From assembly GCA_000146045.2 (NCBI GenBank), contig BK006934.2:480001-544000 (forward strand): a stretch of DNA of 64,000 nucleotides. Reading direction: 5' to 3'. The translations under genes were made by a program, and so were the position numbers. The notes beneath the pieces were generated by a model that searched no databases, was not told where the DNA came from, and was given only the letters and a program-made list of their open reading frames with translations. This stretch comes from TPA_inf: Saccharomyces. Taxonomy: Eukaryota. Positions 37,368 through 63,627 of the stretch are shown one piece after another; within the stretch, counting starts at the first letter, position 1, and every line of letters begins with the position of its first letter.

Positions 37368-37383
37368 AAATTCTATTGTGTTT

Positions 37384-39436: not shown

Positions 39437-40312
39437 ATGCCTAAAACTAGTTATTTAAACAAAAATTTTGAATCTGCTCACTATAATAACGTACGTCCCT
39501 CTTACCCTTTATCTTTAGTCAATGAGATAATGAAATTTCACAAAGGCACACGCAAAAGTTTGGTTGATATTGGATGTGGCACAGGAAAAGCAACTTTTGT
39601 CGTTGAACCCTATTTTAAGGAAGTGATTGGGATTGATCCTTCTTCTGCTATGCTTTCGATTGCTGAGAAAGAAACAAATGAACGTAGATTAGATAAAAAG
39701 ATTAGATTTATTAATGCGCCTGGTGAAGATTTATCCAGCATTCGACCAGAAAGTGTAGATATGGTTATTTCAGCAGAAGCCATCCATTGGTGCAATTTAG
39801 AAAGGCTGTTTCAGCAGGTTTCCTCTATATTACGAAGTGATGGAACTTTTGCATTCTGGTTTTATATTCAGCCGGAATTTGTGGACTTTCCCGAAGCCTT
39901 GAATGTATATTACAAATATGGATGGAGCAAGGATTATATGGGTAAATATCTGAACGACAACCAACGGGAAATTTTGTTGAATTACGGTGGTGAAAAGCTA
40001 CGTTCTTTATTGTCAGATCGATTTGGAGATATTGAAGTCACAATTTACAGTCCTTCGGACCCAAATGCATCAACAGTAACGGCTGAAAACAGTCAGTTTC
40101 TCTGGAGAGCAGCTATTACTCTCAATCAATTTAAAGAGTTTGTGAAAAGCTGGAGCATATACACTTCTTGGGCTAGAGATAATCCCTCGAAACCGGATAT
40201 TGCCGATATATTCATTAACGAGCTCAAAGAAATCTGTCATTGTGAAGATTTGAATGTACCTTTAAAAATAGAGTGGTCAACGTTTTATTACTTATGTAGG
40301 AAAAGAGAATGA
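39437..40312 (+). CDS. CRG1: SAM-dependent methyltransferase (cantharidin resistance), 291 aa
   Basis: The track ORF starts five codons upstream. The ATG at 39437 gives MPKTSYLNKNFESAHYNNVRP... The methyltransferase motif I is VDIGCGTG. Confidence 0.85.
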   Translation: MPKTSYLNKNFESAHYNNVRPSYPLSLVNEIMKFHKGTRKSLVDIGCGTGKATFVVEPYFKEVIGIDPSSAMLSIAEKETNERRLDKKIRFINAPGEDLSSIRPESVDMVISAEAIHWCNLERLFQQVSSILRSDGTFAFWFYIQPEFVDFPEALNVYYKYGWSKDYMGKYLNDNQREILLNYGGEKLRSLLSDRFGDIEVTIYSPSDPNASTVTAENSQFLWRAAITLNQFKEFVKSWSIYTSWARDNPSKPDIADIFINELKEICHCEDLNVPLKIEWSTFYYLCRKRE

Positions 40313-40711
40313 GGTTTACTAAATTAAAAGAAATATATAAAAAGCTGATTTTTTTCTTTTTTTAAATATTTCCCAAATGCTAATAAATATTAAAATATGG
40401 CAAAAAGAAAATAAGGTGTTGTTGCGCAGTTGGGAGTAATTTAAAACCGTCAACATATGCTCTAAAAATTTTATTGGCTCTAAATTCCGACCTCTGAATG
40501 TAATTATGTTTTAAAGCGATACGTAAACTTGTTACTGTTAACATTAAAAGATAATGCAATCATGGTAACATAATAAAGTCTCAAAAAATTCTTAATATTA
40601 ACTATAACATATGCACTTCAGAAAGCTGTTTCCGGATCATATCTCATTATAAAAAGCTCAATTTATAGAAAAATAATGCGACAGTGCAAAGTAAACAACT
40701 AAATTTGGTGC

Positions 40712-41764
<1,053 letters not shown>

Positions 41765-44689
41765 TTACTTATTGCAGTAACATAATGTACAATTGAGTTC
41801 CAGTACTTCGTAGTACATTCTGATTTTATATCTCAGAGCATCCAAGGTGTTTACGCATGAATAACCAAACCATGGAGGAGTTACTTTTACCTTTTTTTAA
41901 GATATTCAGCTAGTAACTAATTGTCGGAAAAACTTAACAGGTACAAGGCCATATTATCACGTAACAAACCTAATTTTTGTACGATATTAGTGCCCGAGAA
42001 TTTCTCCGTAGCGTAATTTTCTGCGAGAATTTCTGCGCAGTGCAAAGATATGCGACCTGACACTCTTTACGAAACTTTACCCCTCCCCCACCTCCACCTG
42101 CATTTATCCCGTCAAAAAGTGTCAATCACCTGGATGCATAAGGAGGAAAAATTATTCCAAGGATGTTGGACAACGCGAATTTTGGAAGTGACTTCTCATA
42201 AGCTTCTGATCTCTACTATATTCTTGTAATTTGGTGGGGTAGTGCAGGCTTACTGTGCGATGAGCAAATCCAGCGTATTGCTCACAGCGATAGGCCTTTG
42301 AAATGATATTGTTTGAATGCAAAACGCAGAAATGATATTCAACTTCATAATCTCATTAAACAAGATAGCATGCCAATAGAATTCCATTTTTTCCGATTCT
42401 TAGGCCATTTACAACCAAGTATCAACTTTCGTATAATTTTATTTCCATAATTATACGCAAATGCTGCAGTAGTTGCACATAGAATGATGATACGACCTAA
42501 TAAAGGAAAAGGGGAATCTGTTCTGAGCTGAAAACTGATTCAAAACTCAATTTGGACACTCGGTTCGGGTGCTGGCCAGCAATAGTTTAGTGTTATCATG
42601 TCATAATCTTCCTCATAGGTTTCAATGTAATATCGATAATTACAAAGTAGTTCCTTTTCATTTAAATTTATATGCAAGAAGATAAGAGTTGATGTAGCAG
42701 TGCACCAGTTTTGCTTTACAATTCTTACAGTTTTATGAAAAATAATCTCCAATATGCCATGCTGAACTGGCATTCTTTTTGAGTGCAAAAGGAGGTTTTG
42801 GAAAAACAAAGTCTTCTTCTGCGTGTTACTCTGAAAATGTTGAAAAATAAGCTGAATGGGGCATTACATGTTTTCATCCAAACATGCCTTGTCAATAACG
42901 AGATTCGCGACGTATTCTTTTAGTATTCTGTTCCTTTTTTTTTTTGCTCCGCGCGCACTTGAACATCTTGCATATTTTTCTTTTCTGTTTTCATCCAGAG
43001 GTTGTGTTCTAGGACTTTCTGACGGAGGAATATCATCAAATCATCACAATAAGATCAATTGCATGGGTTCCAGCACTTAGCCAAATGTACAAATCTTGAT
43101 ATTTACCGGAGACCAACCCTTAGTTTGAAGTGTGCGCTACCAGGGAATCTTCTTCGGTCATTATTTTCTATCTTCACGATAATCGATCCTCCTCCTATAC
43201 GTTAATATCGACTGATATCTAAATACATCGTTGAAGAACGGCGGAAAAATACTTATTTTCAGGTTGTCTTCGTTTTCACTCACGATAGCAATATGGATCC
43301 TTTCACAGCTCCTATCACCGCTGTAGTTTTTTATGACGCTTAATTTCCTGTTAATAAGTAAATAAGGTAAGTTGAAGGTCCTTCATACTGTGATCTGCAA
43401 TAAACCACATGGCTACCGCACTTCTTGTCACTATCCTATGTGGAGAAAACCCAGAAAAAACTTTAAAGCGTGATTGAAATCAATAATTTGGCAAAGAACT
43501 AGAACCATACGCAAGAAAACCTTCCAACTTTGGCATTGTACGCAGAAATGAGACACGTTCAAAGCACAGGTCTTGAAATTTAAAAAAGTTTCTCAAAAGT
43601 TCTCCCAAACCTTCAATTTCTATTGGTATAACAGTATTCTAGGAAGAAAACAGGCGAAGAAAGTTTCTTTACTTTCTTCCTTTAATAGACTTTCATGAAT
43701 ATCAAATGCTGTTGTTTTCAACTAAATCAGACAAGCAAAGGCGATTGCTAAAAGTGAACATATGGAAAATATATGGAAAAAATCTAGAGGCAACAAACGT
43801 TCGGGTTTCCTTTTAACTCCGAGAAAGAAAAATCATTAGAACTTCGTGTTAATCCTAATAGAGTTCAAATATGCTACTAGTCGTCAGAAACCTCAGTTAC
43901 ATGATTACACATTCTAAGACTTCACAAGTGAAAAATTTCCCGACGTTCATAGCATGTTACGTGATCGCGCAGGATGGGACAATTAAACGATCTTTGCAGT
44001 GGAGAAGGAATAACTTCCGGTTGCAGCTACTTGTCAAACAGAACACTGGTATGGATAAGATAATAGTCAGATCTTTTATTACTTATGAAACAATGTCAGT
44101 AACACAGCGTGTTTAACAGATAATGTTCTTTTAACAAAATTAAATGAGGTCTTTTATTGTGTGTGTCAAGTTGACAAGCCGCCTTTATTGATAGATCCCC
44201 ACTAAAAATACCAGGAAATGATGAGCTCGAGTCTTTGTGCCTTTCTCATCATGGACCATTCGCACATGCAGTGCTGCACAACAAAAGATAAATCACCAGT
44301 ATTAGGTGACTTTCAAAACACTAGAATTTAGGCACTTTCAACCCAGCCCAGCGCGTAGTAAGAATAAAGTAGGGGAAAACCTTACGAAAAGCCTCTTTCT
44401 TTTTTGTAAAAAATTCTGTTTTTAATAGCCAGTTCTTTAGTGATTACAGGTAAGAGGGTTTCATATTTTAGAAGTGCAGCCATGATGAAGCACTTTTGCT
44501 CATTTATTGCGAGAAGTTTAATAAGTAGTATGGTTCCATTTTCAAGAATCGAGGCACTGTTCCTTCCCAACCTTGGAATCATACTCCGAAAGGATTTCAA
44601 GCCGATTTAAATTCACCTGGTAACTTTCCTACGGTTTGGCCCAAGGTGATTATAATTAACTTGCGGCTTGTTTTCAGCCTGCGATCGAA

Positions 44690-44915
44690 CCTTTTTTACG
44701 CAAAAAAACCTTATTAATTAAGGTTTTGAAAATTTTCTTCTTTCCGGGAGATTTTCATGTAGCCTCGAGCTTCTGGATTCTCACGGGATTATCTCGCGTT
44801 ACATTTTTTACTTTCTTCTTTCTTTTTGACTTAGGATATACAGATGATACGTCATTGTGTCATAAAACCCGCTGTTGTGCAACAAAAGGGAAAAAGAAAA
44901 ATACTCCTTTTTAGG
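44690..44915 (+). repeat. Copy 1 of a diverged ~220-260-bp dispersed repeat family (core ...AAAATTTTCTTCTTTCCSGKAGATT...GATGAAGCAAAAGRGGAARAG...), 480-700 bp upstream of the FLO5 ATG
   Basis: Alignable by eye with copies at about 51600..51850 and 57960..58215 in the same orientation, at roughly 65-75% identity. Confidence 0.5.
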
Positions 44916-45391
44916 TCTTATAAATATTTTTAGCAGCCATCAAGTCCGGCTTTCAAACTTAATTTCACCCTTTTTCACGGCACCCTCGAGAATTACACTT
45001 TGGTTGCATGCAGGAGTACGCGAAATGCAGCATAAGCTACACATCTATGCGTAGATCGCTTAACCTCTAAAGGCCGTAAACTTTTATTTTGTTTTGCGCT
45101 CATTAAAACCTAGTGGGAGCTGGTAGGAAATAAGCTAGTAGCTTCTATGGATAGAATGGAAATAAACGTAGGTGTAAACACTATTGGTAGAGAAGTTCCT
45201 CTGGTCAAATTTTCATGGGAGATACGTTAAATCTTTCACAGTCTTATCGTTTTGAATCACTGGACGGTTCTGGTATTCTGCTTCATATTTCGACAAGATA
45301 ATAAATATAAAAAGAGCACCCTCATGATTTCTTGCTCTGCAGTAAATTCCGCAAATGATTTTCTTTAAATTGATTAGCACCACTAAAAAAA

Positions 45392-48300
45392 ATGACAATT
45401 GCACACCACTGCATATTTTTGGTAATCTTGGCCTTTCTGGCACTAATTAATGTGGCCTCAGGAGCCACAGAGGCGTGCTTACCAGCAGGCCAGAGGAAAA
45501 GTGGGATGAATATAAATTTTTACCAGTATTCATTGAAAGATTCCTCCACATATTCGAATGCAGCATATATGGCTTATGGATATGCCTCAAAAACCAAACT
45601 AGGTTCTGTCGGAGGACAAACTGATATTTCGATTGATTATAATATTCCCTGTGTTAGTTCATCAGGCACATTTCCTTGTCCTCAAGAAGATTCCTATGGA
45701 AACTGGGGATGCAAAGGAATGGGTGCTTGTTCTAATAGTCAAGGAATTGCATACTGGAGTACTGATTTATTTGGTTTCTATACTACCCCAACAAACGTAA
45801 CCCTAGAAATGACAGGTTATTTTTTACCACCACAGACGGGTTCTTACACGTTTTCTTTTGCAACAGTAGATGATTCTGCAATTTTATCAGTCGGTGGTAG
45901 CATTGCGTTCGAATGTTGTGCACAAGAACAACCTCCCATCACGTCGACTAACTTCACAATCAATGGTATCAAGCCATGGGATGGAAGTCTCCCTGACAAT
46001 ATCACAGGGACTGTCTACATGTATGCAGGCTACTATTATCCGCTGAAGGTTGTTTACTCCAATGCCGTTTCCTGGGGCACGCTTCCAATTAGCGTGGAAT
46101 TGCCTGATGGTACTACTGTTAGTGATAACTTTGAAGGGTACGTTTACTCTTTTGACGATGACCTAAGTCAGTCAAATTGTACTATCCCTGATCCTTCAAT
46201 ACATACTACTAGCACTATCACAACTACCACCGAGCCATGGACCGGTACTTTCACTTCTACATCCACTGAGATGACCACCATCACCGATACTAACGGTCAA
46301 TTAACTGATGAAACTGTCATTGTCATCAGAACTCCAACAACAGCTAGCACCATCACAACTACCACCGAGCCATGGACCGGTACTTTCACCTCTACATCCA
46401 CTGAGATGACTACTGTCACCGGTACCAACGGTCAACCAACTGACGAAACTGTTATTGTCATTAGAACTCCAACTAGTGAGGGTTTGATTACTACAACTAC
46501 CGAACCATGGACCGGTACTTTCACCTCTACATCCACTGAGATGACTACTGTGACCGGTACCAACGGTCAACCAACTGACGAAACTGTTATTGTCATTAGA
46601 ACTCCAACTAGTGAGGGTTTGATTACTACAACTACCGAACCATGGACCGGTACTTTCACCTCTACATCCACTGAGGTTACCACCATCACTGGTACCAACG
46701 GTCAACCAACTGACGAAACCGTGATTGTCATTAGAACTCCAACTAGTGAGGGTTTGATTACTACAACTACCGAACCATGGACCGGTACTTTCACCTCTAC
46801 ATCTACTGAGATGACTACTGTCACCGGTACCAACGGTCAACCAACTGACGAAACTGTTATTGTTATCAGAACTCCAACCAGTGAAGGTCTAATCAGCACC
46901 ACCACTGAACCATGGACTGGTACTTTCACCTCTACATCTACTGAGGTTACCACCATCACTGGTACCAACGGTCAACCAACTGACGAAACCGTGATTGTCA
47001 TTAGAACTCCAACTAGTGAGGGTTTGATTACTACAACTACCGAACCATGGACCGGAACTTTCACCTCTACATCCACTGAGATGACTACTGTGACCGGTAC
47101 CAACGGTCAACCAACTGACGAAACTGTTATTGTCATTAGAACTCCAACTAGTGAGGGTTTGATTACTAGAACTACCGAACCATGGACTGGTACTTTCACT
47201 TCTACATCTACTGAGGTTACCACCATCACCGGTACCAACGGTCAACCAACTGACGAAACTGTTATTGTCATCAGAACTCCAACTACTGCCATCTCATCCA
47301 GTTTGTCATCTTCTTCAGGACAAATCACCAGCTCTATCACGTCTTCGCGTCCAATTATTACCCCATTCTATCCTAGCAATGGAACTTCTGTGATTTCCTC
47401 CTCAGTAATTTCTTCTTCAGTCACTTCTTCTCTAGTCACCTCTTCTTCATTCATTTCTTCCTCTGTCATTTCTTCTTCTACAACAACCTCCACTTCTATA
47501 TTCTCTGAATCATCTACATCATCCGTCATTCCAACCAGTAGTTCCACCTCTGGTTCTTCTGAGAGCAAAACGAGTTCGGCTAGTTCTTCCTCTTCTTCCT
47601 CTTCTATCTCTTCTGAATCACCAAAGTCTCCTACAAATTCTTCTTCATCATTACCACCTGTTACCAGTGCGACAACAGGCCAGGAAACTGCTTCTTCATT
47701 ACCACCTGCTACCACTACAAAAACGAGCGAACAAACCACTTTGGTTACCGTGACATCCTGCGAATCTCATGTGTGTACTGAATCCATCTCCTCTGCTATT
47801 GTTTCCACGGCCACCGTTACTGTTAGCGGCGTCACAACAGAGTATACCACGTGGTGCCCTATTTCTACCACAGAGACAACAAAGCAAACCAAGGGGACAA
47901 CAGAGCAAACCAAGGGGACAACAGAGCAAACCACAGAAACAACAAAACAAACCACAGTAGTTACAATTTCTTCTTGTGAATCTGACATATGCTCTAAGAC
48001 TGCTTCTCCAGCCATTGTGTCTACAAGCACTGCTACTATTAACGGCGTTACCACAGAATACACAACATGGTGTCCTATTTCCACCACAGAATCGAAGCAA
48101 CAAACTACGCTAGTTACTGTTACTTCCTGCGAATCTGGTGTGTGTTCCGAAACTACTTCACCTGCCATTGTTTCGACGGCCACGGCTACTGTGAATGATG
48201 TTGTTACGGTCTATCCTACATGGAGACCACAGACTACGAATGAACAGTCTGTCAGCTCTAAAATGAACAGTGCTACCAGTGAGACAACTACCAATACTGG

Positions 48301-48619
48301 GGCTGCTGAGACAAAAACAGCAGTCACCTCTTCACTTTCAAGATTCAATCACGCTGAAACACAGACAGCTTCCGCGACCGATGTGATTGGTCACAGCAGT
48401 AGTGTTGTTTCTGTATCCGAAACTGGCAACACCATGAGTCTAACAAGTTCCGGGTTGAGCACTATGTCGCAACAGCCTCGTAGCACACCAGCAAGTAGCA
48501 TGGTAGGATCTAGTACAGCTTCTTTAGAAATTTCAACGTATGCTGGCAGTGCCAACAGCTTACTGGCCGGTAGTGGTTTAAGTGTCTTCATTGCGTCCTT
48601 ATTGCTGGCAATTATTTAA
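45392..48619 (+). CDS. FLO5: Flocculin (lectin-like cell-wall adhesin), 1075 aa
   Basis: It has a signal peptide, an N-terminal PA14/Flo lectin domain, and 8 tandem 45-aa Thr-rich repeats. A Ser-rich region follows, then three Cys-containing ~50-aa repeats, then a C-terminal GPI signal. Position next to YHR210C and the length argue for FLO5 rather than FLO1 or FLO9. Confidence 0.9.
46207..47286 (+). repeat. 8 x 135-bp near-identical tandem repeats inside FLO5 (45-aa unit [44 protein letters not shown])
   Basis: The CCATGG landmark recurs with an exact 135-bp period, for example 46235 and 46370. Copies differ by only a few substitutions. Confidence 0.9.
47716..48240 (+). repeat. Three ~150-bp Cys-containing repeats ([10 protein letters not shown]..CxE..[29 protein letters not shown]) in the FLO5 C-terminal region. 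Embedded in it is a short 21-bp repeat ([10 protein letters not shown]) at about 47869..47950.
   Basis: Seen directly in the FLO5 translation and in the DNA. Confidence 0.8.
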
Positions 48620-51599
48620 TAAAATTCGCGTTCTTTTTACGTATCTGTGTATCTTTTCTTTGCTAAATATACGCTGACATGAATTATTTTTTAACTGTTT
48701 CTTCTCCATACTTTCAAATATTCAAATTGAACTAAATGATAATTCTTGCGCTTCCTATTTTGAAAAAGTAGATATGTGTATCATAAAGAAAACGTTACTA
48801 TTATTGTCTTAGGCAACAAAAATCCATGAAAAGAATTTTACCGTTATCGATACCATTGTATTTATTTTATTTATTTATTTAATTTTTTTTTTTTTTGGTT
48901 TATATCCTGCAAACAACACTTCGAATTCAATTCGATATTTCATAAGTTACAACTAACACTTATAGAAACCGATGTATGAGTACTTATTATTAACGAGGAA
49001 AAATGGCCTATTTTGTTTAGCAATTAATGAACCATCGCCAATTTTTGCTTTAACAATTATTGCCATTTTCAGTAGTACTAACGTAAGATCTAGTGTGGTT
49101 CGCTTAGGATGTTTTTGAGTAGAAATCTGCTTACATGCCACACGCAGTACTTGAAACTTGAAATAATGGGGATAATTAGTTATTTAAAGTATGTGCTTGT
49201 TCTTTTATATTTATTTCGAATTCTTTTGCACTAGTATTTAAAATATCAGCAGAGGCGTAAAAGTGCACCAAAATTATTGTAAAACTACTTGCCCTAAAAT
49301 TGATACTTCATACTTGACATATTCAAAAGGGGTCCAAGTATAGATGCATCAAAAAAAAAAAAAATTATCCGATGATGAGCAAATGGTAGCTTTTCGTTCC
49401 CCAGGAAGTGTAGTAGTTCCATGAAGTCTAATGAGACTTTGGAAAAAGGTTTGTCACGAGCACCGAACTACTGTATTTTGGAATTTTGATAAACTTCAAA
49501 ACGGGAACGAAGTGTTAAACTTAGATGCGGTTGTTTTAAGCTTTAAAAGAGGAAAATAATGACTGGTGATAAGAAGTCAACAACGATTCAAAGCAGGTGA
49601 ATTTCCATTACGTTTCGCTTTTCAATTGAAAAAAATTTGGTGGTTATTCGTTTCTTGCTTGACCTCTTCATTTTTTATACTTCTGTGATGAGAAGCAAGT
49701 TCGAGGATTTTACGATAAAGCCTACTGGTTATATTTGTATAAATTAGAACGTTGTCCTTATTTCTCTTTTCGAACAGTATCAAAATAAAGTTTTTGATTA
49801 GGGCTAGATTCTCTTCAAGGAAGAGATACCTCACGTCTGTAATATCTAAGAGCTAATGTTTCGATCGAACTTTCCTTTGCTTTTTTTCTGGATCTCATAA
49901 TGTCCCACTGTATGTATGTGCCCTCGCACAGCTTTGCTCATCATAGACATTAATCATTGGTTGTATGATAAAAATATCGCAAGAATTATTCTAACGTTCA
50001 GATTAGATTCCAGCCATATTTCTGACATTTGTTTTATTAATAAAAATTTGGCGAATGTTTTGATAACTTGATAACTGCTGGTATTTCATTGTTGAAAAGG
50101 CATGATATTAGATGCACAAAGTATATTATAACTTATGATCAGAGATATAGGAACAAAAAAAAGGGAAAATTCATATCTATATGTGAAAATACCATTATTT
50201 CCTCTCCTGTTTAATATTCTGTCCTTAATTTTCATATTACATTATCAACTTTTGCATTTCAGTGTCCATTAAATCTTGGGACCATTTTCTCAATCTTCAT
50301 GTCGTCTTTTCACACCGTATATAATATACTGGTACTATAAGTACTAGTCGATAGATCGCAGTTGAGTCTTATTCCAACAGTTAATGATTCACTGAGCTTT
50401 CTGTTGCTGTAGACTTTCTGAGGCATCGTCGCTCTCTTCTATGTGATGCTACAACGGAACTAGGCTTCTTATATATCGTGGTCCTACAAGATCTTGGTAT
50501 CTCGTTTGCTTACTTTGAAGCTTCACTGATATATAGTATTTAAGCCACTTTTATGTTCATGGATAATCGTAATTGTACTACGCTGGTACCAGTTATGAAC
50601 CCTATCAAATCATCATTGAACACTGCTATTTTTAACTAATCAAGATATGTATGCGGCGTACTTTATAATTTCACGACACTATTGAAAGCAAACTAAAAAT
50701 CAAGTAAATACCTATCCAAGTTGCGGGCTCTGGATTTATGTGGCCTTAAATTTTCGACCTATGGTTCACTATTCAATACGAGAAAACCAAAATTAGGTAC
50801 AAGTACTGATTGCGTTCGTGATTTGAAAAGCAGCGTTAAAAGATTACAAGATTTTGCGTTTCCAGGCCGACACTTAACTTTAAGGTCTCGACTTGGTAAC
50901 ATGAGTTGCCAAAAGTTTTTTTCTCCTATCTGAATATGGGGAACCGGAATCTGTCTTTGACCTGACTTTCAAATTGTTGCATATGTAAAAAAAAAACAGA
51001 AGAAATATTATCTTCTCCTTCTAGCGATGCAAAAGGATTCATTACAAATCGTCGCAAAGGCTGACAAGTTGCAGTATATTCACATTGCTTATTTGAAGTA
51101 CGTTTGTATACACATCGATAGTATTCATTAACACCACAACTGCTGTGTATACTATGTCAAACAGCACAATAAAGCCCGTCATTTTCGTACCCGCTCATTT
51201 CCAATAGGTATCTAAACTTACAAATGTGGTACACTACTTCGAATTCATTAATCGATATTGAATGCTAAAAAGTCTGCGATTTCTTCCTCAACGTTCAAAA
51301 ATCTCATCCAAGGCATAATCCCACATATTGAAGATCGCTACCAATTGTTACAGGCGAACTGAAGTTTTGGAAATGAGCTTGTACTTAGTAAATTTCTCTT
51401 TGCTTGCATCTTTTTCTTCCATGCCAAAAAATAAAAGATACTCATTTTAAAAACGCAGCCATATTGACTAAGTAAGTAATCATAATACTATGAGTAATTT
51501 TTGAGTACTGTGCTCATTTACTAGCTGCTTTTCTGAGAAAGATCCTCGATAATCAATTCCAGGTTAGTGGGGCGCTTCTACGGCCTCTTCTAACCAATT

Positions 51600-51850
51600 G
51601 TTCCCCGTGAGTTGCTTTCTCTGAAAACCTTATTATACATTAGAGTTATAAGAAAATTTTCTTTTTCCCGTAGATTAACTTGCAGTGCCGAACTTCTAGA
51701 TGTCACACCAGACCGTTTGACACCGCCATTTTCCTTCCTTTTCGGAAAAATGTGCCGATAAATGGTAAGACGCGACGCCACTGCTACGAATATTACGCTT
51801 ATGATGAAGCAAAAGGAAAAAGCAAGTTCCCCTTAAATTCGTATAACTGT
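51600..51850 (+). repeat. Copy 2 of the same repeat family. It sits in the middle of the stretch with no long ORFs and carries a decayed YHR212C-like minus-strand ORF
   Basis: TTTTCTTTTTCCCGTAGATTAACTTGCAG...TGATGAAGCAAAAGGAAAAAG. The minus-strand ORF 51590..51781 shares LQVNLRE+NFL with YHR212C. Confidence 0.5.
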
Positions 51851-54800
51851 TTCATCAATCTTTAGTTCTGGCATTTGAAAGTTAATTAAACTTTTCTTCG
51901 TGGTTTCTACAGGAGTTCTGCATGTGCGTAATTCAAAGCCTGTGAAGGAAAAAGTATTGTCCTAAACAACGGTCGTAGAATACGTCAACTGTAGTTTAAA
52001 ATATTTTCTGGCTCTACTCGGTGCGATAGGTCTGGCTCTTTTCTATTTACTTTTGTTTGGAGTTGTTGAGGCCGATACCCGTCTAGATGTAAATATGAAA
52101 TAACAGTTCGAGGTTTTATTACGAGAATGAAAAGGGTAATGGATTGGAGCATGTGTAAATGTCAATAGCAGAAAAAATTTACCGCAAATTGTTTCGTAGT
52201 CTTATCTTCATCGGACACTCAAGGGTTGCATAATTTTTACCCAAAGGAACAGTATACTTTTTTGATAAAAAAATCTTGTTACCTATACAGTATTGCAAGC
52301 ATTTTCAGAAACTCGTCTTTTGAGTTCTAAATGCATCATACAACAACAACAACAATTTCTTATTACTGTGTCCTTTTGGGATTTTTCAGCCTTCCTAGCT
52401 TACCCAAAATAGCCTCTCAAGGTGAAAAAACCATGCCTGCAAGCGGATCTAAGGATGAGTAGCTAGATTACAATAAATCCTGAATTTTCTCTGAGTGTCA
52501 ACTTTGTCATCGCTTGTTAAAGGGCTACTACGCTGAAAAAGAACCTGAACTCTGTTAATAGGTTGAAGATTTTATGACTTGGTATACTATTCCATACGGC
52601 TGCTCTCCTGATTGCGGTGGGTCATTGCTATAACAGTAAAATCAAGGAAGATAACAGGAAGAGTAACTTTAGTACAATAAATCTGTTGTCTCCCGAGGAT
52701 TATAATTGTTCGGCTTTCACACTAAGTTGAAAAGGGGGACTCAGGAAATGACAGGGTACGTTTTAGTTTCTCCAAATAAATCTTCCACACCCAGCTTCAA
52801 TGTGGTAAACGGAGGAAAGTTGATTAATTGATGTTGGCACTTATATTTAACTGATGTAGAGAAGAACAACATACTACTAACGTCACAGTCAATTGTGCCA
52901 GTTTTCCAATCAAGTATTTCGAGATAATGTAAAAGTAATTGATATATGTTCGTACTGGTTTCCCAATTTCCGGGAAAAACTATGTACATGGGTGCAATTC
53001 CTTGTGGTTATTTCCTTTTAGGTTATATTGCCAACCACATCATAGTACTATTTGCGGTCACTTCAGAAGATATGTTTGCTCCTTTGATCATGATATAGAC
53101 CAGGCCAACTGTACCGCTTCAGGCTTCAAAGCATTAGGAATAAGCACCACTATTACACAACCATAGAGCTACTCTTACTGTCACGTAGGTAAAACACTTG
53201 CTACTACACACACTCGTAGTGACTCATCTGACTATATTGCCGGTTGTTAAGAGGCACCAGTTAAGCACGCCATCAAGGGTACCGAATAATCTCTTCTGTA
53301 TCAAGTATTCTACCTTTATGTCTGACCCACGTATTATGTGGAGCAATTACGTATTTTTCTCATATCAGCTTTGTTTTTACTCAACTTTGATATCTTAGAG
53401 AAACAGATCTTGATGTTACAGCAAGGTCAGGAAAATATTTTGACAAAAACATACTAGTTTCATCCTTAGTAGTTGATTCTATGAATGCTGTACTTGAAAA
53501 TATTGTTCATAAAATCCATAAGTTTTACCAACGGTATAATATCCTGCTATTAAATCTGCAATTGCTTTTGCGAAAAGAAGGAAAACATGCAAAACAAAAG
53601 CAAAAAAAAATTGGCACCCCAATTTCTTATAATATAATAATATAACGGAAGTACACCATGCTTTCAATAATAAGATGTTTCCTGAAAAGGGCAACTATCT
53701 GACTAGTTCAGAGCCATGCAAAAGTTAAGGATGAAAATGCCAAATAAGAAGATATTACGGAGTACATTCATTTCAAAAAGAAGAATGTATACTGCTTAGA
53801 TAAGAAGATCAAGTTTTTATATTTCCGACCAAATAAGCCATCGAAAACTTTTGATGCACCAAACACCGTTCTTGAGAGCCAAGCACAGATGCAATTGTTC
53901 TGCCCTTCTTCCAAATTATGAATTGTGCATCATATCGTAAGGCCAGCCACATAAAAAAAAGGAGCAAAAAACTCAGTATACAGGCGAATATCCATCATAC
54001 AGTCTAGCTGCCCTCACTACTTCCAAAAAAATGGGCTAGTGTTGTACGGTTTATGCCATATATCTAGAGTTAGCATAACTATGCACTACCGCTTTTCGAA
54101 CAAAAAGTTTGCGAAACCTAGTTCATTGAATATGACTTACCCAAAATGGATACCAAGATCCTAATAATAAAGTCAATAACTTGAATTTTAGGTGCCATTA
54201 TTTCCAACAATCATTATAGGCTAACTCTACCAGCAGACTAGAATACCGTTCTTCTAGTTGAGCACATGGTCAAAATAGTCAATAAAAAACGCCCAGAAAT
54301 GGCTGTAAATTAGTGTTTGTAGTACACAAAATAATTTCCTAATTCCTTCCAAATGGGGTTTTCAAAAAGCTGACTCACGTAATTGATCAATACTTCACTA
54401 AAGAAGAATCATATGAATAAAACTAAAATCAACACTAACTGAGAGACTTAGCGGCCAAAGCTTAATCATCATTACATAGAGTATATGAAGGGAGTAAGTG
54501 AATATGCAAGGGTGGGAAACGGCAAAGCATTTTTATGCAAAAAGCGTATTTACAAATCCCGTAAACTCATGATGTGAATTTTGTAACCAGCTTTAGCTGA
54601 GATTATTTCTTTTGCAAAAGAAATATTCAATAAATTAACAATTTTCAAATAAATTACCAATCAATGGTCGATAACTTGCAAGAGAGATATCATCATTTGG
54701 CTTTTGTGATAAATTTACAAAACGTAATGTTGTATCGAGATATATTGAGTTACAAGTTTTCGTCTCTTTTTCCGAAGCGCCAGACTCCCGTATAAAAAAT

Positions 54801-57758
54801 AAGGTTTATAGCGGGCATTATGCGTAGATCAGGACTTAAATTTTTCATTGCAGAAGTCCAATTTCAGACTCAGTATGGTTTGTTGTAGTGCTGGTGTAAA
54901 AGATGGTGTTATTACTTAAGACTGATTTGGTTGCTCAGGTATTTCATTCAATAAAATTGTGAAAGAGAACCTGGAATATAGAATGGAAATATATATCCTG
55001 CTACTAACCCCAATGGAAGGTGACGATCACTTCTTGTGCGTTCCAATCCCAGTTTTTGAATGTGCGAGTGGAAAAATTCTAGAGGAACAAATTGATATTT
55101 TCAAATCAGAATTCATCAAATATATGTACTCTGTAAAAACCAAGGATGTGATGAAGTTGAGATATTGTCTTTATGGGAAATTGACTTCTTTGTTTAATAT
55201 GAATAATGCAATTTTACTCCTCAGCTCAAGTAGTGTAAAGATTCAGTAGCCGTCATCAAATAGACTAAAAATTAAAAAATAAGATTCAATGTGGTATGAT
55301 AATGATAGATGAGAAGAAATTGCAAGAAAACGAATAAATACCTTGTCTCTTTGCACTGAATATCTTAAAGGACATACAGTCGCAATAACGTCTACTCATT
55401 GGTGTGTGTCAAAAACAGTACGTTTATTATCTGGACAGCCAAAAAATAAGATCTATTCAAACATGGAATATAGCGTATTTTTATTTAATCACGGTACAAT
55501 GGAGATATTTGCATGCCTATAGAAACAAGTAATAGTTATCATATTATTTTCTAGATTTTGTCACTGAACTTTTCCACTAATGAATCCTATCAAAATTATA
55601 TATCCAATATGGCTGCATTCCCAACTAAATATTAAAATGCCGCTAAGTATAAAATGTCTCCGCATCGGTAAAAAGCATTACAAATGCGTATTATACTAGC
55701 GAGAAAAAAGTATAAGTATCAATGCCAATCACCCTCTGACCATAAACTTTCTAAACATGAATAATAAAGGTGTTGAGAGTTATTATCCTAATTGATCAAT
55801 TAATTTGAAGCAAAGTTATTATGTTAAAGAAAAAGGGATGTCACAATCCTAACTATAATTTTTGCACTATACTCTGTAGGCGTACAAAATGGTTTGTACC
55901 GACTATATTCTCTTTATTTTTGACAATCCTTTACGATATATGATTAAGAATACCATGTTATTTTTATGAAAATCTGTGATTTTTTTGTTTTCATACACTT
56001 TTTATTTTTGTCACGTAGTGCACTTTGATTAATACAAAAAAAAATGCTGCAAAAGCATCGACTACATAAATTCATTAGGACGCATTCCTCATTACCACCT
56101 GGGTCTAATTTTTATTTTGAAATTGATATTATTCTTTATATGATGAGGTAAAAAGCATTATATTCGTTGTAAACTCATATACTTATCCTCATTTTAGGCA
56201 CCATCAGGGACTAAGGGCTAAAGTATCAGAGCCGCATTTCAACAGTGTACAGAGATTTTAGAAACATTATCACGCACTGCCTTTTGCTTTGTTTACCCGT
56301 AATGAGTATACAGTGGATTTTCTGGTGCTAAAGCATATTGCCCTTTCGGCAATACTTGATGCCCTAAACATTTTCATCCTGGAACATACGAGTAAGAGCA
56401 CATTTATGTGCCTATATTCCTCGTTTTTTACTGGTGCTGAATTTCTTATTTTCCACAGATAACAATCATGTTAATAAATTATGCACTGTGCTAATTTTTC
56501 AATTAAGGTTCTATTACCCCTCTATCACCGACAGAAACACGTAATGATGTGTTATTTCCATTATAATTCCGTAAGAATGGTGTTTATAGGTAGTCTAAAG
56601 AACGTGCATCAGAGAAGAATGACTGTCGCAAAAAATGACTATTCTTTACCTTTTCAAACTTAACTGAGATAGTTATCTCTATTATTACCAGTGGCACACA
56701 CGCGAACTACATCACTCACCACTATCGTCTTAGGAACTCAAGATTTTATAGTAATGCAGCCGAAGACATTCAAGTCCTGAGAGAAAATGTAGACATTTTA
56801 AGAAAAGTACCGGAAATAAAGCACATGTAAAGCATTGAGCTCTGTACTCTATAAAAATTAGCTGCATTCAAACAACAATGTTTGAAATTTTTGCAAAAGT
56901 TATTGAAAAAGATTGCTGTTTTCAGCCTTGTTCAGATCATGTCTCAAAAATGAGAAACTGGAACTCTCATAATCAGTACCTCGTATTTTTTTTTCCTTAT
57001 AGTTTCGTTATTAAAAATTTTTTTGCTGCTAATTTAAGTACGCTTTTGGTCATAAATGCTACCCACCAGTTGAATTATTGACATGATTAAAATACATTTC
57101 AGAACTTTACGGATTAAAAACTTTAAAGAACCTTTCAATCCATGTTGCTGGAGGGCCATGAATCCACGAATTACAGCAAAAGAAGACAGTAACTACTTAG
57201 GGTTCAATAATTACTTGCATAAACACACACTAACAACCAAATCGTACTAAAATTTGCAATTAACAAAACTCCATCATATCACGCTGAATTATGTAGGGCT
57301 TCTTAATGCAATAGGTTGCCTGAATTTTGCTTACTCGTGCTGCCGGGAACACTTAGCAGTTGGGAGGCCGTTTCTCCCATATATTTCATAATTTTCTGTC
57401 CTTCTTAGAGTAGGATGCTGAAAATCAAAAGAAGACCGTCAATAGGACCAGATTTTGTGGGTCAATTTTGGGCCAGACACATGATACCCTAGGAAGTTTA
57501 ACGGTATACAACTCAAGGACGAGGAGTATTCGGAAACTACCGGTTTTTAACAAGCTGCAAATTTCCAGTAGCTGTTTTGGTTGCGACTACGGATAAAAAT
57601 TCATACTTTAGGAAGTGAAGCAAGATAAAAAATCATGCTGCATCCTAATTCGTGAAGTTTGTTAGGAATATTATTGTAAACAAGGAACCGTTTCAGTAAA
57701 CTTGCTCTCTACTCTTCTAAGCTGTAATTTAAAAAAAGCGATAAAACAATGATTTTGA

Positions 57759-58094
57759 TTATCTGCAACTTCTGGAAACTCGAGATACTACGCTAGACGA
57801 GATACCTATTAATTGTTTTCCTAAAAAATCAGGAACAGTTCCTGGCAGCTTTCGGCTCCTTCTTGTTCTGGAAAGGATCTTCAAATCCGCTTCCACGTAG
57901 CAGTCCTCGCTACGACTTCTTCTGAAGTATTTTGATTTTTGGCTGCATTTACCTTTTATTGCCGAAAATCTTATTTTCCAAGAAAAAAGCTTATTTTGCA
58001 TTAAGTTTAAAAAATTTCTTCTTTCCCGTAGATTGACTTGCAGCGTCAAAATTCCGGAGGCCTCACGAGATTTTTTGACATCGGTTTTTGACAT
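57759..58094 (-). CDS. YHR212C: Small ORF of 111 aa (MSKTDVKKSREASGILTLQVNLRERRNFLNLMQNKLF...), the S288C dubious ORF YHR212C. It lies entirely within repeat copy 3
   Basis: The ATG is at 58094, and the track ORF is N-terminally extended. It is probably conserved only because the underlying DNA repeat is conserved. Confidence 0.3.
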   Translation of the reverse strand: MSKTDVKKSREASGILTLQVNLRERRNFLNLMQNKLFSWKIRFSAIKGKCSQKSKYFRRSRSEDCYVEADLKILSRTRRSRKLPGTVPDFLGKQLIGISSSVVSRVSRSCR

Positions 58095-58215
58095 CTCTTT
58101 TTCCTTCCTTTTTCTTTCTTTTCCTGCGCACGCCGATAAAGAAGTAGTACAACAGACAACGTCAAAATGATCCTCTTGTGATGAAGCAAAAGAGGAAGAG
58201 TATACTCCTTTTCCG
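57960..58215 (+). repeat. Copy 3 of the same repeat family, 530-780 bp upstream of the FLO-like pseudogene. It overlaps the dubious ORF YHR212C
   Basis: TTTCTTCTTTCCCGTAGATTGACTTGCAG...GTGATGAAGCAAAAGAGGAAGAG. Confidence 0.5.
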
Positions 58216-58741
58216 CTTGTACAAATATTTTTTTTGATAATAAAATTTGGCACTTCAGAGCTTATCGTATCTTCTCCCGGAGTTCCTCAAGACTTATACT
58301 TCAGCCCGTTTAGGAATGCATAAAAGCAAATAGGATTCGTTACAACTGCTGCAGGACTCTTTAGGACTGCATCAAGGTAAGCCTCGCTGCACCTAAACGC
58401 AAAATGTGGTTGTAACCTTTTTAATTTTTTTCTTGAACTTGTTGAGTCGTAATAAATCGTTTCTGGGAAGTGGAAGGTAATAATGTAATGGAATCGGCGT
58501 TACTCGCATGTGCAGATATCAGCGACAAAAAGTGTTGTAGGGACGTTTCGATACCAAAATTTCCTAAATACAGCGCAGGAACATCACTACGCTAAACAAA
58601 TCGTAGCGCATACATCTGATCGAAAAAAGACAGTTCCCAAAACAATGACATATGAAGAGACCAGCATCAAAATTTTCATCATTAACAGCATGGCTAAAAG
58701 TTATTGTTTAATATACCCATACCTGATTGACGAACCAAGAA

Positions 58742-58945
58742 ATGCCTTATCACTATTTATTTTTGGCACTCTTCACCTACCTGGCCACGTCCAATGTTGT
58801 TTCAGGAAGTACACAAGCATGCCTGCCAGTGGGCCCGAGGAAAAATGGGATGAATGTCAACTTTTATAAATACTCATTACTGGATTCAACAACGTATTCC
58901 TACCCGCAATATATGACTTCTGGATATGCCTCGAATTGGAATTAG
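58742..58945 (+). pseudogene. 67-aa N-terminal fragment ORF of the FLO pseudogene (S288C YHR212W-A-like)
   Basis: Described in the previous entry. Confidence 0.6.
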
Positions 58946-59150
58946 GTTCCGTTGGCGGACAGACGGATTTCTCAATTGACTACGATCTTTCTTGTGTTAT
59001 CTCTTCAGGAACTTTTAAATGTGCTCAATCAGATGCTTATGGAAACTGGGGATGCAGAGGTCATAGTGAATGTTCAAAATAGCCAAGAAAGACCTATTGG
59101 AGTACTGATTTACTTGGTTTCTTACTATCCCAAAAAACGCTACTCTAGAA

Positions 59151-59747
59151 ATGACAGGTTACTTTTTACCACCACAAACAAGTTCTTACACGTTCAGGTT
59201 TGCTAAGGTCGATGACTCTGCAATTCTATCAGTCGGTGGTAACGTTGCGTTCGAATGTTGTGCACAAGAACAACCTCCAATTACATCGACGGATTTTACA
59301 ATCAATGGTATTAAGCCATGGCAAGGAAGTTTGCCTGATAACATCGGAGGGACTGTCTACATGTATGCAGGCTACTATTATCCGCTGAAGGTTGTTTACT
59401 CCAATGCCGTTTCCTGGGGCACGCTTCCAATTAGCGTGGAATTGCCTGATGGTACTACTGTTAGTGATGACTTTGAAGGGTACGTTTACTCTTTTGACGA
59501 TGATTTAAGTCAGTCAAATTGTACTATCCCTGATCCTTCAAAACATACTACTAGCATCGTCACAACTACTACCGAACTGTGGACTGGTACTTTTACTTCT
59601 ACATCTACTGAAATGACCACCGTCACCGGTACTAATGGTCAACCAACTGACGAAACCGTTATTGTTGCCAAAGCTCCAACCACTGCCACCTCATCCAGTT
59701 TGTCATCATCTTCTTCAGAACAAATCACCAGCTCTATCACGTCTTAG
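59151..59747 (+). pseudogene. YHR213W: 198-aa internal fragment ORF of the FLO pseudogene (S288C YHR213W-like)
   Basis: [30 protein letters not shown]... is near-identical to the FLO5 PA14 C-terminal half plus one A repeat. Confidence 0.6.
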
Positions 59748-60548
59748 CATCCAATTATTACTCCATTCTATCGCAGCAATGGAACTTCTGTAGTTTCTTC
59801 CTCAGTCATGTCTTCCTCGGTCATTTCTTCTTCTGCAACGACCTCCACTTCTACATTCTCTGAATCATCTAAATCATCCGTCATTCAAACCAGTAGTTCC
59901 ACCTCTGGTTCTTCTGAGAGCGAAACAATCTTAGTGATTGCTGGCATGTCATTAGCGACAAGACGCTTATTACCGTAGTAGCCCCCCAAGGCAAACATCT
60001 CTTTATCAGTAATATCCAAAGCTGTTCAACTTCTCGAATTGGCCCAGGAAAAGAGCATTGGGGCGGCAACTAACTCTGGCATACTTACAGTTTCTGCTCT
60101 TGACAGCGCTAAAAAAGGGCTTGTTTTGTAATGCCCGGTTCGCAATTCTACAAGTACCACGCACTAGCTGCTAAAAGTGTCTAACCTTGCGAACAACTCT
60201 GGACTTTCTTATGAGAATCCCATCGTCAAGAAACAAAATTATACAGACAGGCGTAAATGTAGCTCGTAAGCGCCTGATCAAGTAAGCCAAATGCGCTAAC
60301 TTGAGGAAATATAGCCATCTAAATCTCTGCAACATGCCAATTCGCACGTGACTTGAAACTATGGAAAGTGTCTAGAAGATTACCAAGAACCACGTTATTT
60401 GAGAGAGGATGGCAAGGTGACGACAATCACACCAAGACCACATTTTGGGTGCGCCTGGAAGCAAGACCTGAGAAACTGGGCCAAAATATTCAAACCAAGC
60501 ATAAGATAGTTGGAGGTAGGAATACACTATCTAATCTGTGCTGATGAA

Positions 60549-60782
60549 ATGCTGGCGAAAACGGGCGATGTAGTGGTACAGAAGGTGCCGGTTATCCGTT
60601 TGTCCGTTTTTCTTCATTTTTTTTTTGTTTTTCCCTTTTGTCTTTTGCACCGCTTATATATGGGTATGAAACAAGTTCAAGAATTTATAATGGAACCCAA
60701 AGGTTCAGTCTTTGTAGTTCGAGCGACATTGCGCGTTTCCTTAGAAAACGCTGGAAAGATATTCTTTAACGAGACGGAGTAA
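60549..60782 (+). CDS. 77-aa hypothetical ORF (S288C YHR213W-A-like); no recognisable domain
   Basis: The ATG is at 60549 within the track ORF 60510..60782. It is of dubious coding status. Confidence 0.2.
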   Translation: MLAKTGDVVVQKVPVIRLSVFLHFFFVFPFCLLHRLYMGMKQVQEFIMEPKGSVFVVRATLRVSLENAGKIFFNETE

Positions 60783-60799
60783 TTCTCGTCAGGAATAGG

Positions 60800-61099
60800 A
60801 TGTTGATTGATTTTTGCTGTAGTTATATAGCAGGGACCCACGGAAGAGAGCGAGCGCCTTCTTTCACAGGGACTTTTGTCAGCCACGTCTCCGCGGAAAA
60901 CAATTGCCGTCCGCGTCGCAGTGAGATTACGCAGCCGTGCGCTTCAGGGACAGAAAAGAAGCATTTCGCGGCTACGGAGAAACAGTGCACTAACTCTCTC
61001 GAGGGTAGCCGCAAAGATTTCTTGTCTCTTCCATTAGGACATAGCTATCTTTTTCTTTTCTGTTTTTGGCGTATGATCTGTTCTGAGCCAAAGTTATAG
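60800..61099 (+). CDS. 99-aa hypothetical ORF (S288C YHR213W-B-like) in a local GC-rich island with overlapping ORFs on both strands
   Basis: The ATG is at 60800. Antisense ORFs of 63 and 69 aa overlap it. Confidence 0.25.
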   Translation: MLIDFCCSYIAGTHGRERAPSFTGTFVSHVSAENNCRPRRSEITQPCASGTEKKHFAATEKQCTNSLEGSRKDFLSLPLGHSYLFLFCFWRMICSEPKL

Positions 61100-61245
61100 A
61101 ACATTGCTTGAATAAGCACCTCACAGAGTAGGGATTGTATAGAAAGTAGCTGAGCGTCTGCCCACGTAACAAACAATCTTGCCCCTTCCCCGCTCTTGTT
61201 TTCGCGTGCCTCTTCTACAATAATCTGGCCAGGCTAAATCGCGTT

Positions 61246-61286
61246 CTGCTGCTGCTGCTGCTATTGTTATTGTTGTTGTTGTTGTT
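61246..61286. repeat. (GCT)5 (ATT GTT)2 (GTT)5 trinucleotide repeat ~370 bp upstream of YHR214W
   Basis: Seen directly. Confidence 0.9.
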
Positions 61287-61650
61287 TTGGCCAATTGCTT
61301 ATGTGTTGGTCTGCAAATTAGCACCTCGTTCCCTGTTGGCAAACGCGCGCGTACAAGCCTTACAGGGCTTGAGAATGTTCTTCGTAGAAATGCATGCACA
61401 AAAATTTTGATCTAGCACACCATCGGTCTCTGTAGCTTCGGGCTCTATAGCTATGGGTTAGGAGTCCGTGAGTAGTAACAAGAAGAAGTATATAAAAAGC
61501 AGGTAAATCGTACTTCAATATGCTTCATTGTCACTGGATCGTCATATTCACTCTTGTTCTCATAATAGCAGTCCAAGTTTTCATCTTTGCAAGCTTTACT
61601 ATTTCTTTCTTTTTATTGGTAAACTCTCGCCCATTACAAAAAAAAAAGAG

Positions 61651-62262
61651 ATGTTCAATCGTTTTAACAAATTCCAAGCTGCTGTCGCTTTGGCCCTACT
61701 CTCTCGCGGCGCTCTCGGTGACTCTTACACCAATAGCACCTCCTCCGCAGACTTGAGTTCTATCACTTCCGTCTCGTCAGCTAGTGCAAGTGCCACCGCT
61801 TCCGACTCACTTTCTTCCAGTGACGGTACCGTTTATTTGCCATCCACAACAATTAGCGGTGATCTCACAGTTACTGGTAAAGTAATTGCAACCGAGGCCG
61901 TGGAAGTCGCTGCCGGTGGTAAGTTGACTTTACTTGACGGTGAAAAATACGTCTTCTCATCTGATCTAAAAGTTCACGGTGATTTGGTTGTCGAAAAGTC
62001 TGAAGCAAGCTACGAAGGTACCGCCTTCGACGTTTCTGGTGAGACTTTTGAAGTTTCCGGTAACTTCAGTGCTGAAGAAACTGGCGCTGTCTCCGCATCT
62101 ATCTATTCATTCACACCTAGCTCGTTCAAGAGCAGCGGTGACATTTCTTTGAGTTTGTCAAAGGCCAAGAAGGGTGAAGTCACCTTTTCTCCATACTCTA
62201 ACGCTGGTACCTTTTCTTTGTCAAATGCTATTCTCAACGGTGGTTCTGTTTCCGGTTTGTAA
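61651..62262 (+). CDS. YHR214W: 203-aa secreted protein, the N-terminal part of a Ser/Thr-rich GPI cell-wall protein. It is truncated by an in-frame TAA
   Basis: The ATG is at 61651, inside the TTG-extended track ORF. It has a signal peptide MFNRFNKFQAAVALALLSRGALG and a TATATAAA box at 61489..61496. It ends at TAA 62260..62262. Confidence 0.7.
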   Translation: MFNRFNKFQAAVALALLSRGALGDSYTNSTSSADLSSITSVSSASASATASDSLSSSDGTVYLPSTTISGDLTVTGKVIATEAVEVAAGGKLTLLDGEKYVFSSDLKVHGDLVVEKSEASYEGTAFDVSGETFEVSGNFSAEETGAVSASIYSFTPSSFKSSGDISLSLSKAKKGEVTFSPYSNAGTFSLSNAILNGGSVSGL

Positions 62263-63546
62263 CGTAGAGACGACGATGAAGGCTCTGTAAATAACGGTGA
62301 AATCAACCTAGACAATGGAAGTACCTATGTTATCGTTGAACCAGTTTCTGGAAACGGTACAATCAACATCGTCTCTGGTAACCTATACTTGCACTACCCT
62401 GACACCTTTACTGGCCAAACTGTTGTATTCAAGGGTGAAGGTGTTCTTGCCGTTGACCCAACCGAAACCAACGCCACTCCTATTCCTGTTGTTGGCTACA
62501 CCGGTAAGAACCAAATTGCCATTACCGCTGACATCACTGCTCTTTCTTACGACGGTACTACTGGTGTCTTAACTGCAACCCAAGGTAACAGACAATTCTC
62601 TTTTGAAATTGGTACTGGATTCTCTAGTTCTGGCTTCAGTGTCTCCGAAGGAATCTTCGCAGGCGCCTACTCATATTACCTAAACTATGACGGTGTCATC
62701 GCTACAAGCGCCGCATCCACATCCGCATCCACTACCTCTGGTGTTGTCTCTACTGCCACTGGTTCAGTCACTTTATCCTCTAACGCTTCTACCACCGTCT
62801 CTTCTACGATCTCTTCTAGCGCCCCAGACTCAATAATTCCTTCATCTAGCGCCTCCATCTCTGGTGTCTCAAACTCCACTACAGCATCTGGTTCAATCGC
62901 TTCTACTGCTTCCACCGCTTCCACTACTTCTACTGCATCCGCTGCATCCGCCACCAGCTTCACCTCAGGTTCCGCTTCTGTCTACACTACTACATTAACT
63001 TACTTGAATGCCACAAGTACAGTCGTGGTTTCCTGTTCAGAAACAACCGACGCTAGCGGTAACATTTACACCATTACCACAACTGTCCCATGCTCATCTA
63101 CCACTGCCACCATCACATCTTGTGACGAAAACGGATGCCATGTTCCAGCACCAACTGCTACCGACGCAACTGCAACCGTTTCCTCCAAATCATACACCAC
63201 TGTTACTGTTACTCACTGTGACAACAATGGCTGTAACACCAAGACTGTCACTTCTGAATGTTCTAAAGAAACTGCAGCAACCACCATTTCTCCAAAATCA
63301 TACACTACTGTTACCGTTACTCACTGTGACGACAACGGCTGTAACACCAAGACTGTCACTTCCGAGGCTTCCAAACAAACATCATTGGCCACTAGCACAG
63401 TCACCAAGTCTGCTGCTCCAACTTCTCATACTGCTGCTTCCAGCACCTTCACTGGTATTGTCGTTCAATCCGAAGGTATGGCTGCTGGTTTGAGAACCAA
63501 TGCTTTAAGTACTTTGGCAGGTATTTTCATCCTTGCTTTTTTTTAA
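62263..63546 (+). pseudogene. In-frame continuation of YHR214W, with no ATG, encoding 427 further codons. These comprise a Ser/Thr-rich region, 2 x 37-aa Cys repeats ([24 protein letters not shown]) and a C-terminal GPI-attachment signal ([23 protein letters not shown])
   Basis: The frame is open from 62263 to TAA 63544..63546 and is the same frame as YHR214W, since 62389 minus 61651 equals 738, which is 3 x 246. The track reports it as 62389..63546 with a TTG start. Confidence 0.65.
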
Positions 63547-63627
63547 AATGAGTGCGTAACCGTACTTTCCTAAAAATAACTAAGTAGAAAGTATTTTAAT
63601 ATATAAACGTGAGATATATGTGGGTAA

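Follow-up and report, generated by a model that had tools for sequence, protein, structure and literature searches.

Extensive intergenic recombination among FLO1-like N-terminal domains (P < 1e-16) has been described in a data set that took in pseudogenes and some partial sequences; the history of the family is strongly reticulate, and parental FLO sequences can generally not be distinguished from recombinant ones (Christiaens et al., 2012, EMBO Rep, PMC3512402). A FLO gene can also recombine with its downstream pseudogene (Verstrepen et al., 2005, Nat Genet, as summarised in PMC8621652), and GenBank holds entries named "FLO1/YAR062W fusion protein" (AAY57869 and AAY57870). Synonymous divergence between the pseudogenes YAR062W and YHR213W is nil (Ks = 0.000), against a Ks of 0.31 between FLO1 and FLO5 (Katju et al., 2009, PMC2728529). 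YHR213W is transcribed, and is up-regulated by overexpression of MSS11 (PMC3276193).

Here, we describe a short tract within this pseudogene as it occurs in a 64,000-nt stretch of the reference yeast genome (hereafter, the window). The pseudogene is a mosaic, for which ectopic gene conversion involving the FLO5 locus is the best explanation. Our preferred reading, to which we give a probability of roughly 75%, is that the tract was overwritten by a functional FLO5-type allele, and that the block containing it then spread between chromosomes I and VIII. We found no description of the YHR213W tract in the searchable literature. Since published work has already established that FLO N-terminal domains recombine with one another, and FLO genes with pseudogenes, the tract leaves the view of FLO evolution unchanged; it is a well-resolved new instance.

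Results

A flocculin pseudogene with a FLO5-like middle

The pseudogene corresponds to YHR212W-A/YHR213W, a known flocculin pseudogene downstream of FLO5 on the chromosome VIII right arm, and sits within a block duplicated between chromosomes I and VIII. It consists of a PA14 N-terminal domain, one A repeat and a Ser-rich stretch, and is truncated at its 3' end. Its start lies 13,350 nt from that of FLO5, in keeping with the distance of 13 kb given in a first-pass annotation of the window. The features of the locus are as follows.

45392..48619, + strand: FLO5 (YHR211W-type, 1075 aa; ORF list and translation), the functional paralogue 13.35 kb upstream, whose N-terminal domain aligns to the pseudogene
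46007..46199, + strand: FLO5 segment near-identical to the pseudogene core (offset 13,342 nt; 3 mismatches in 193 nt)
58742..59926, + strand: flocculin pseudogene, whole (YHR212W-A/YHR213W region; blastn against FLO5, three-frame translation, and tblastn with the intact relative P0036)
58742..59234, + strand: native 5' part of the pseudogene, which carries disabling lesions (allele identities, reading frames)
59151..59747, + strand: YHR213W ORF, 198 codons, ending at a premature TAG at 59745..59747 (ORF list and translation)
59235..59665, + strand: conversion tract at its maximal extent; minimal extent 59241..59612 (allele identities, informative sites)
59349..59541, + strand: core of the tract, also near-identical to the window FLO5 (3/193 mismatches)
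59562..59685, + strand: single A repeat (135-nt type), matched by each FLO5 A repeat at 84.6-86.1%
59666..59926, + strand: native 3' part of the pseudogene, a Ser-rich region that matches unconverted alleles and not FLO5-type sequences

Three-frame translation, together with tblastn using P0036, identified five disabling lesions: a 1-nt deletion near 58933 that leads to a TAG at 58943..58945, an in-frame TAG at 59080..59082, a 1-nt deletion near 59122/59123, the premature TAG that ends YHR213W, and truncation at 59926, with loss of everything 3' of that position, including the C-terminal anchor region. The reading frame passes through three frames along the way. By the same analysis, none of the five lesions falls within 59235..59665. 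In blastn comparisons, FLO5 similarity picks up again over 59568..59926, aligned with gaps to 47171..47571 at 79.7%, and goes no further than 59926, such that positions 47572..48619 of FLO5 have no counterpart and the C-terminal third of the flocculin is missing. The first-pass annotation had described both the collapse to a single A repeat and the loss of the C-terminus, and was right on each count. The 198-aa YHR213W product has precomputed matches to Pfam families PF07691, PF10528 and PF00624 (PA14, GLEYA and Flocculin); the tract covers ~72% of the YHR213W ORF, and encodes the C-terminal part of PA14 and most of the A repeat.

We aligned the pseudogene from position 58742 globally to FLO5 from position 45392, and scored identity per 60 nt. 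Successive intervals gave 55% (signal peptide), 75, 63, 72, 72, 72, 85, 80, 93, 82, 92, 100, 95, 92, 85 and 72%. In terms of position, identity is 55-75% over the first ~350 nt and 63-75% up to ~59090, then 80-93% up to ~59330, 100% over 59393..59452, 92-95% up to ~59570, and ~85% in the A repeat. The core at 59349..59541 is 98.4% identical to FLO5 (3/193 mismatches), as compared with 73% for 58748..59234. Hence, the earlier picture of a diverged 5' end, with a signal-peptide region only ~50% identical to FLO5, joined to a near-identical middle is upheld, as is the presence of long runs of identical DNA: a 116-mer has exactly two copies within the window, at 46011 and 59353, where none would be expected, and the longest perfect run between the two genes is 121 nt (59348..59468). 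The near-identical part is shorter than had been proposed. The interval 59290..59530, previously called essentially identical to FLO5, is 93.4% identical (16/241 mismatches), and near-identity is limited to ~59349..59541, because 13 of the 16 mismatches precede 59348.

Over 2000 random reorderings of the mismatch positions, the longest run had a mean length of 26 nt and was 60 nt at most, and the two-breakpoint maximum chi-square statistic was reached in none of 200 permutations. Divergence along the alignment is clearly not uniform: there is a discrete segment of sharply raised FLO5 identity, with flanks of lower identity, beyond what chance would give. Chance as an explanation is ruled out by the run-length shuffles and the maximum chi-square permutations. 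Assembly artefact is likewise ruled out, since the same sequence occurs in eight independent assemblies.

Alleles without the tract

Pseudogene loci in other strains were reached through protein matches. The following alleles bear on the tract.

L009, strain CDG_1a, chromosome I-sized contig: unconverted pseudogene allele
L012, strain AMM_1a, chromosome I, 9710-10647: unconverted pseudogene allele
L016-L018, CEI_1a (L016, chromosome VIII) and others, on chromosome VIII- and chromosome I-sized contigs: unconverted pseudogene alleles
L019-L021, YJM1527 type: pseudogene alleles

Over 58748..59234, identity to the window pseudogene is 96.3-96.7% for the CDG and AMM alleles; the CEI_1a allele is 96% identical to it over 58748..59180, and all three match the window copy again from ~59613. 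Across the tract (59235..59665), by contrast, the CDG allele is only 86% and the AMM allele 80% identical to the window pseudogene, and all five unconverted alleles (L009, L012 and L016-L018) have a common, non-FLO5 sequence there. Thus, the pseudogene locus has two allele classes that differ by one block. At the edges of the tract, the YJM1527-type alleles depart from the S288C type in a manner resembling the FLO5 and FLO1 loci.

The best match to the tract is found at the FLO5 locus of two other strains. Genes L014 (CPG_1a, 10001-11557) and L015 (ADI) lie downstream of the same SET-domain, aminotransferase, methyltransferase and aldose-epimerase genes as the window FLO5, and are identical to the window pseudogene at 430 of 431 positions over 59235..59665. 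Their 5' part is a divergent FLO5-type sequence, 67.5% identical to the 5' part of the pseudogene (58742..59234), which is itself 73% identical to the window FLO5. For a triplet analysis, we took as parents the consensus of three unconverted alleles (CDG_1a, AMM_1a and CEI_1a) and the L014 gene. Informative sites in the window pseudogene run as 157 of pseudogene type (with three strays), then 43 consecutive sites of FLO5 type (59241..59612), then 19 of pseudogene type, the recipient-type sites nearest to the tract being 59231 and 59666. The pattern therefore describes one tract of 372-434 bp. The same discordance appears as phylogenetic incongruence, the tract grouping with the FLO5 paralogue while the flanks group with alleles of the same locus. 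The tract boundaries, which the first-pass annotation had proposed to look for, fall at 59241..59612 (minimal) and 59235..59665 (maximal).

The CEI-type alleles (L016-L018) carry a second, independent patch of 82 nt (59181..59262), which matches FLO1 at 96% and the CDG allele at 78%. On this evidence, conversions into the pseudogene recur.

Direction of transfer

We infer from parsimony and from the pattern of lesions, rather than from an outgroup, that sequence probably passed from a functional FLO5-type allele into the pseudogene. Both pseudogene flanks and the 10-kb spacer that separates it from FLO5 are retained, with no crossover. The pseudogene is favoured as the recipient because a single event then explains both boundaries and both allele classes, because the tract is free of lesions while its flanks carry all five, and because the unconverted alleles look decayed inside the tract. 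Indeed, where functional genes have YYYP or FYYP and SWGTLP, the unconverted alleles have FYCPMK and SWHTLP, replacing Tyr with Cys and Gly with His in conserved motifs, and the AMM allele (L012) lacks 24 nt (at the equivalent of ~59570..59593) and has gained 1 nt near 59485, in a region that is intact in the window copy.

Transfer in the opposite direction, with the tract native to the pseudogene and copied from there into FLO5-locus alleles, the other pseudogene alleles having changed later, would take two or more events whose boundaries coincide (59231-59241 and 59612-59666), affecting FLO5 and the CDG/AMM/CEI alleles. Identity alone is symmetric, and FLO5 could be the altered party, given that the window FLO5 matches FLO1 upstream and departs sharply from it exactly here; moreover, the CPG and ADI alleles are both physically joined to the pseudogene. 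Nonetheless, pseudogene-type decay is missing from the tract and present, as five lesions, in its flanks, and the alternative alleles have the look of decayed sequence, not of a recent import from a functional gene. We therefore consider the opposite direction unlikely, and retain transfer into the pseudogene as our reading.

The probable donor type

The first-pass annotation had proposed exchange with the window FLO5 itself. The existence of unconverted alleles bears out gene conversion involving a FLO5-type sequence, but the closest match is the CPG_1a/ADI allele, and the window (S288C-type) FLO5 has only the core at 59349..59541 in common with the tract. When the window FLO5 is used as the parent, the clean donor-type block shrinks to 21 sites (59357..59465), which indicates that the S288C-type FLO5 is itself a mosaic. 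We also considered several small patches from the S288C FLO5, the pattern with the window FLO5 as donor being ragged at 59240..59356 and 59557..59594; this was rejected, since the raggedness disappears with the CPG/ADI allele as the parent. In CPG_1a (L014), the tract leads directly into four FLO5-type A repeats. L014 and L015 are both deletion fusions with the pseudogene, such that their tract could in principle derive partly from the pseudogene.

As a stand-in for the S288C FLO1, we used the allele of strain BCN (L013), which has an S288C-type N-terminus, along with a second FLO1-locus allele (L011). The tract is 80-82% identical to these two alleles (80% to the BCN FLO1); it is of FLO5 type, and not of FLO1 type. 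A donor at some other FLO paralogue or allele (FLO1, FLO9 or a subtelomeric copy), perhaps acting on chromosome I in a block that was later copied to chromosome VIII, could be entertained on the grounds that an identical converted pseudogene is present on chromosome I-sized contigs and that FLO alleles are mosaics with segments common to several loci. However, the FLO1-locus alleles fall well short of the tract in identity, and among the FLO1- and FLO5-locus sequences compared, only those of the FLO5 locus (window, L014 and L015) carry the tract or its core; such a donor is improbable, and a FLO5-locus allele is the source we favour.

A separate observation concerns the relationship between FLO5 and FLO1. 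Over approximately the first 430 nt past the signal peptide, the window FLO5 follows the FLO1 allele L013 almost site for site; over the next ~350 nt (the region of 45870..46200 in FLO5) it diverges from L013, with 32 nucleotide differences in the 192-nt core. The region in which FLO5 and FLO1 diverge reportedly determines sugar recognition, according to work by Kobayashi and colleagues from 1998.

Identity at synonymous sites

Within the 64 codons of the core, FLO5 and the FLO1 allele have 26 synonymous and 4 nonsynonymous codon differences, and FLO5 has 21-24 synonymous codon differences from two other functional-type alleles. Protein constraint in the core thus clearly tolerates ~17% divergence in DNA. 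FLO5 and the pseudogene differ there by three nucleotides in total, their identity reaching synonymous, neutral sites; given that FLO5 and FLO1 differ synonymously at 26 of 64 codons, selection at the protein level is excluded as the cause. A history with no exchange, in which purifying selection conserved the PA14 middle while the signal peptide and early domain evolved fast, is barely credible, even though the core encodes a conserved C-terminal part of PA14/GLEYA and protein identity there is high across the family: functional paralogues differ synonymously at 21-26 of the 64 codons, pseudogenes escape such selection, and divergence among alleles of this one pseudogene is 14-20% in the tract as against only 3-4% in the 5' flank. 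A selection-only explanation is accordingly ruled out, both by the synonymous differences among functional paralogues and by allele divergence inside the tract.

Copies on chromosomes I and VIII

The 198-aa protein occurs unchanged in many S. cerevisiae assemblies, on both chromosome I-sized and chromosome VIII-sized contigs, and its relatives bear source names such as "YHR213W-like protein" and "FLO1/YAR062W fusion protein". A chromosome I-sized contig from another strain (L002) is 100% identical to 58600..60100 of the window. More broadly, this contig is 99.88% identical to the window over 49151..63610 (14.4 kb, 14 mismatches), with identity ending at ~63610, where the window sequence resembles the terminus of a minus-strand Ty1 delta LTR. 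An identical converted copy is therefore found on chromosome I, next to FLO1, and because of this the proximity of FLO5 in the window cannot be the whole story. The converted class and the CEI-type class each occur on both chromosome I- and chromosome VIII-sized contigs, which suggests that the distal blocks are homogenised between the two arms within lineages, and that this is ongoing.

Fusions with FLO5 and intact relatives

Some strains have lost the DNA between FLO5 and the pseudogene. L015 (1-14880) aligns to positions 35394..46323 of the window and then to 58802..63610, a 12.5-kb deletion that fuses FLO5 to the pseudogene. The natural FLO5::pseudogene fusions (L015 and L014; 338-aa and 518-aa products) end at the premature stop of the pseudogene, without the anchor region, and the 338-aa form represents a cluster with 38 members. 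Fusions with FLO1-type and other N-termini also occur, and P0002, P0005, P0030, P0034, P0038 and P0047 all end at the same premature stop. The converted patch gives FLO5-locus alleles ~430 bp of perfect homology to a direct repeat located 13 kb downstream. Such homology would be an obvious substrate for deletions between FLO5 and the pseudogene, and is of the kind that may have yielded the 12.5-kb deletion fusions of other strains, with their anchorless 338-aa products.

It had been suggested that the pseudogene could act as a donor or reservoir for adhesin diversification. The conversion event gives no support to such a role: sequence appears to have flowed into the pseudogene, and the recombinants found are truncating deletion fusions. 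We did not find pseudogene-origin segments in functional, full-length FLO alleles; the recombinants sampled are all anchorless, full-length FLO proteins lying outside the sample. An intact gene at the FLO5 locus of CPA_1a (L010:10001-11143; product P0036) has a 5' part that is 81% identical to that of the pseudogene, as compared with 73% for the S288C FLO5, from which we conclude that the pseudogene lineage survives as a working N-terminal domain. We regard as very improbable the broader idea that the chromosome I and VIII pseudogenes are maintained recombination partners, with refreshed tracts setting the rate of FLO1 and FLO5 deletion or fusion (a reversible on/off or truncation switch for flocculation) and occasional donation of N-termini to functional alleles.

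Two further observations concern the organisation of these loci. Downstream of the FLO5-locus gene in CPA_1a (L010), rhodanese- and SBF-family genes occupy the place of the pseudogene block. In other strains, P0038, P0039 and P0042 carry a flocculin N-terminus whose signal peptide differs and which contains a long insertion (MSIPHSVFSAVLVFVALATTTLAS...), joined to a FLO1-like PA14; in P0038, which represents a cluster of 73 members, this insertion-bearing N-terminus ends with the 3' end of the pseudogene.

Discussion

We propose that the pseudogene would be an old, disabled member of a separate flocculin lineage, and that in an ancestor of the S288C-type allele ~370-430 bp of it (between 59241..59612 and 59235..59665) may have been overwritten by non-reciprocal homologous recombination. 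The template would have been a functional FLO5-locus allele, of a type still found in CPG_1a and ADI. A likely route is a break in the pseudogene, repaired with the upstream paralogue (13 kb away, on the same chromatid or its sister) as template. The converted distal block could then have spread, and been homogenised, across the right arms of chromosomes VIII and I, such that a FLO5-type patch would now also lie beside FLO1. The tract is a clean example, dated by alleles, of sequence exchange in subtelomeric adhesin families: unconverted alleles, the converted allele and the donor type all persist in the species, and a tract of ~400 bp has ends resolved to tens of bases.

Mosaic VSG genes in trypanosomes are a case of pseudogene-templated antigenic variation, in which pseudogenes donate sequence to the expressed gene. 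FLO and VSG genes are alike in being surface-protein families whose silent or dead copies swap segments with expressed ones. They differ in that the flow at the FLO locus probably ran into the pseudogene, and in that nothing here suggests a programmed or selected mechanism.

Within yeast, the duplication between the right arms of chromosomes I and VIII (YAR050W-YAR068W and YHR211W-YHR214W-A; PMC2728529) contains the same pair of pseudogenes, and our comparison confirms it at 99.88% over 14.4 kb; exchange between the pseudogene and FLO5 is not addressed in that study (Katju et al., 2009, PMC2728529). The case of Verstrepen et al. (2005) involves the same partners, FLO1 or FLO5 and the YAR062W or YHR213W pseudogene 10-13 kb downstream; as summarised in PMC8621652, it consists of crossovers and deletions that fuse the two, whereas the window holds a non-crossover patch, with both genes and the 10-kb spacer kept. 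The work of Christiaens et al. (2012) concerns the same gene family, the same domain and the same process as the tract in the window. That analysis is statistical and family-wide, and finds a reticulate history; the locus described here provides one tract in one pseudogene, with ends placed to within ~10-50 nt, alleles that represent the state before the exchange, and a direction that we infer.
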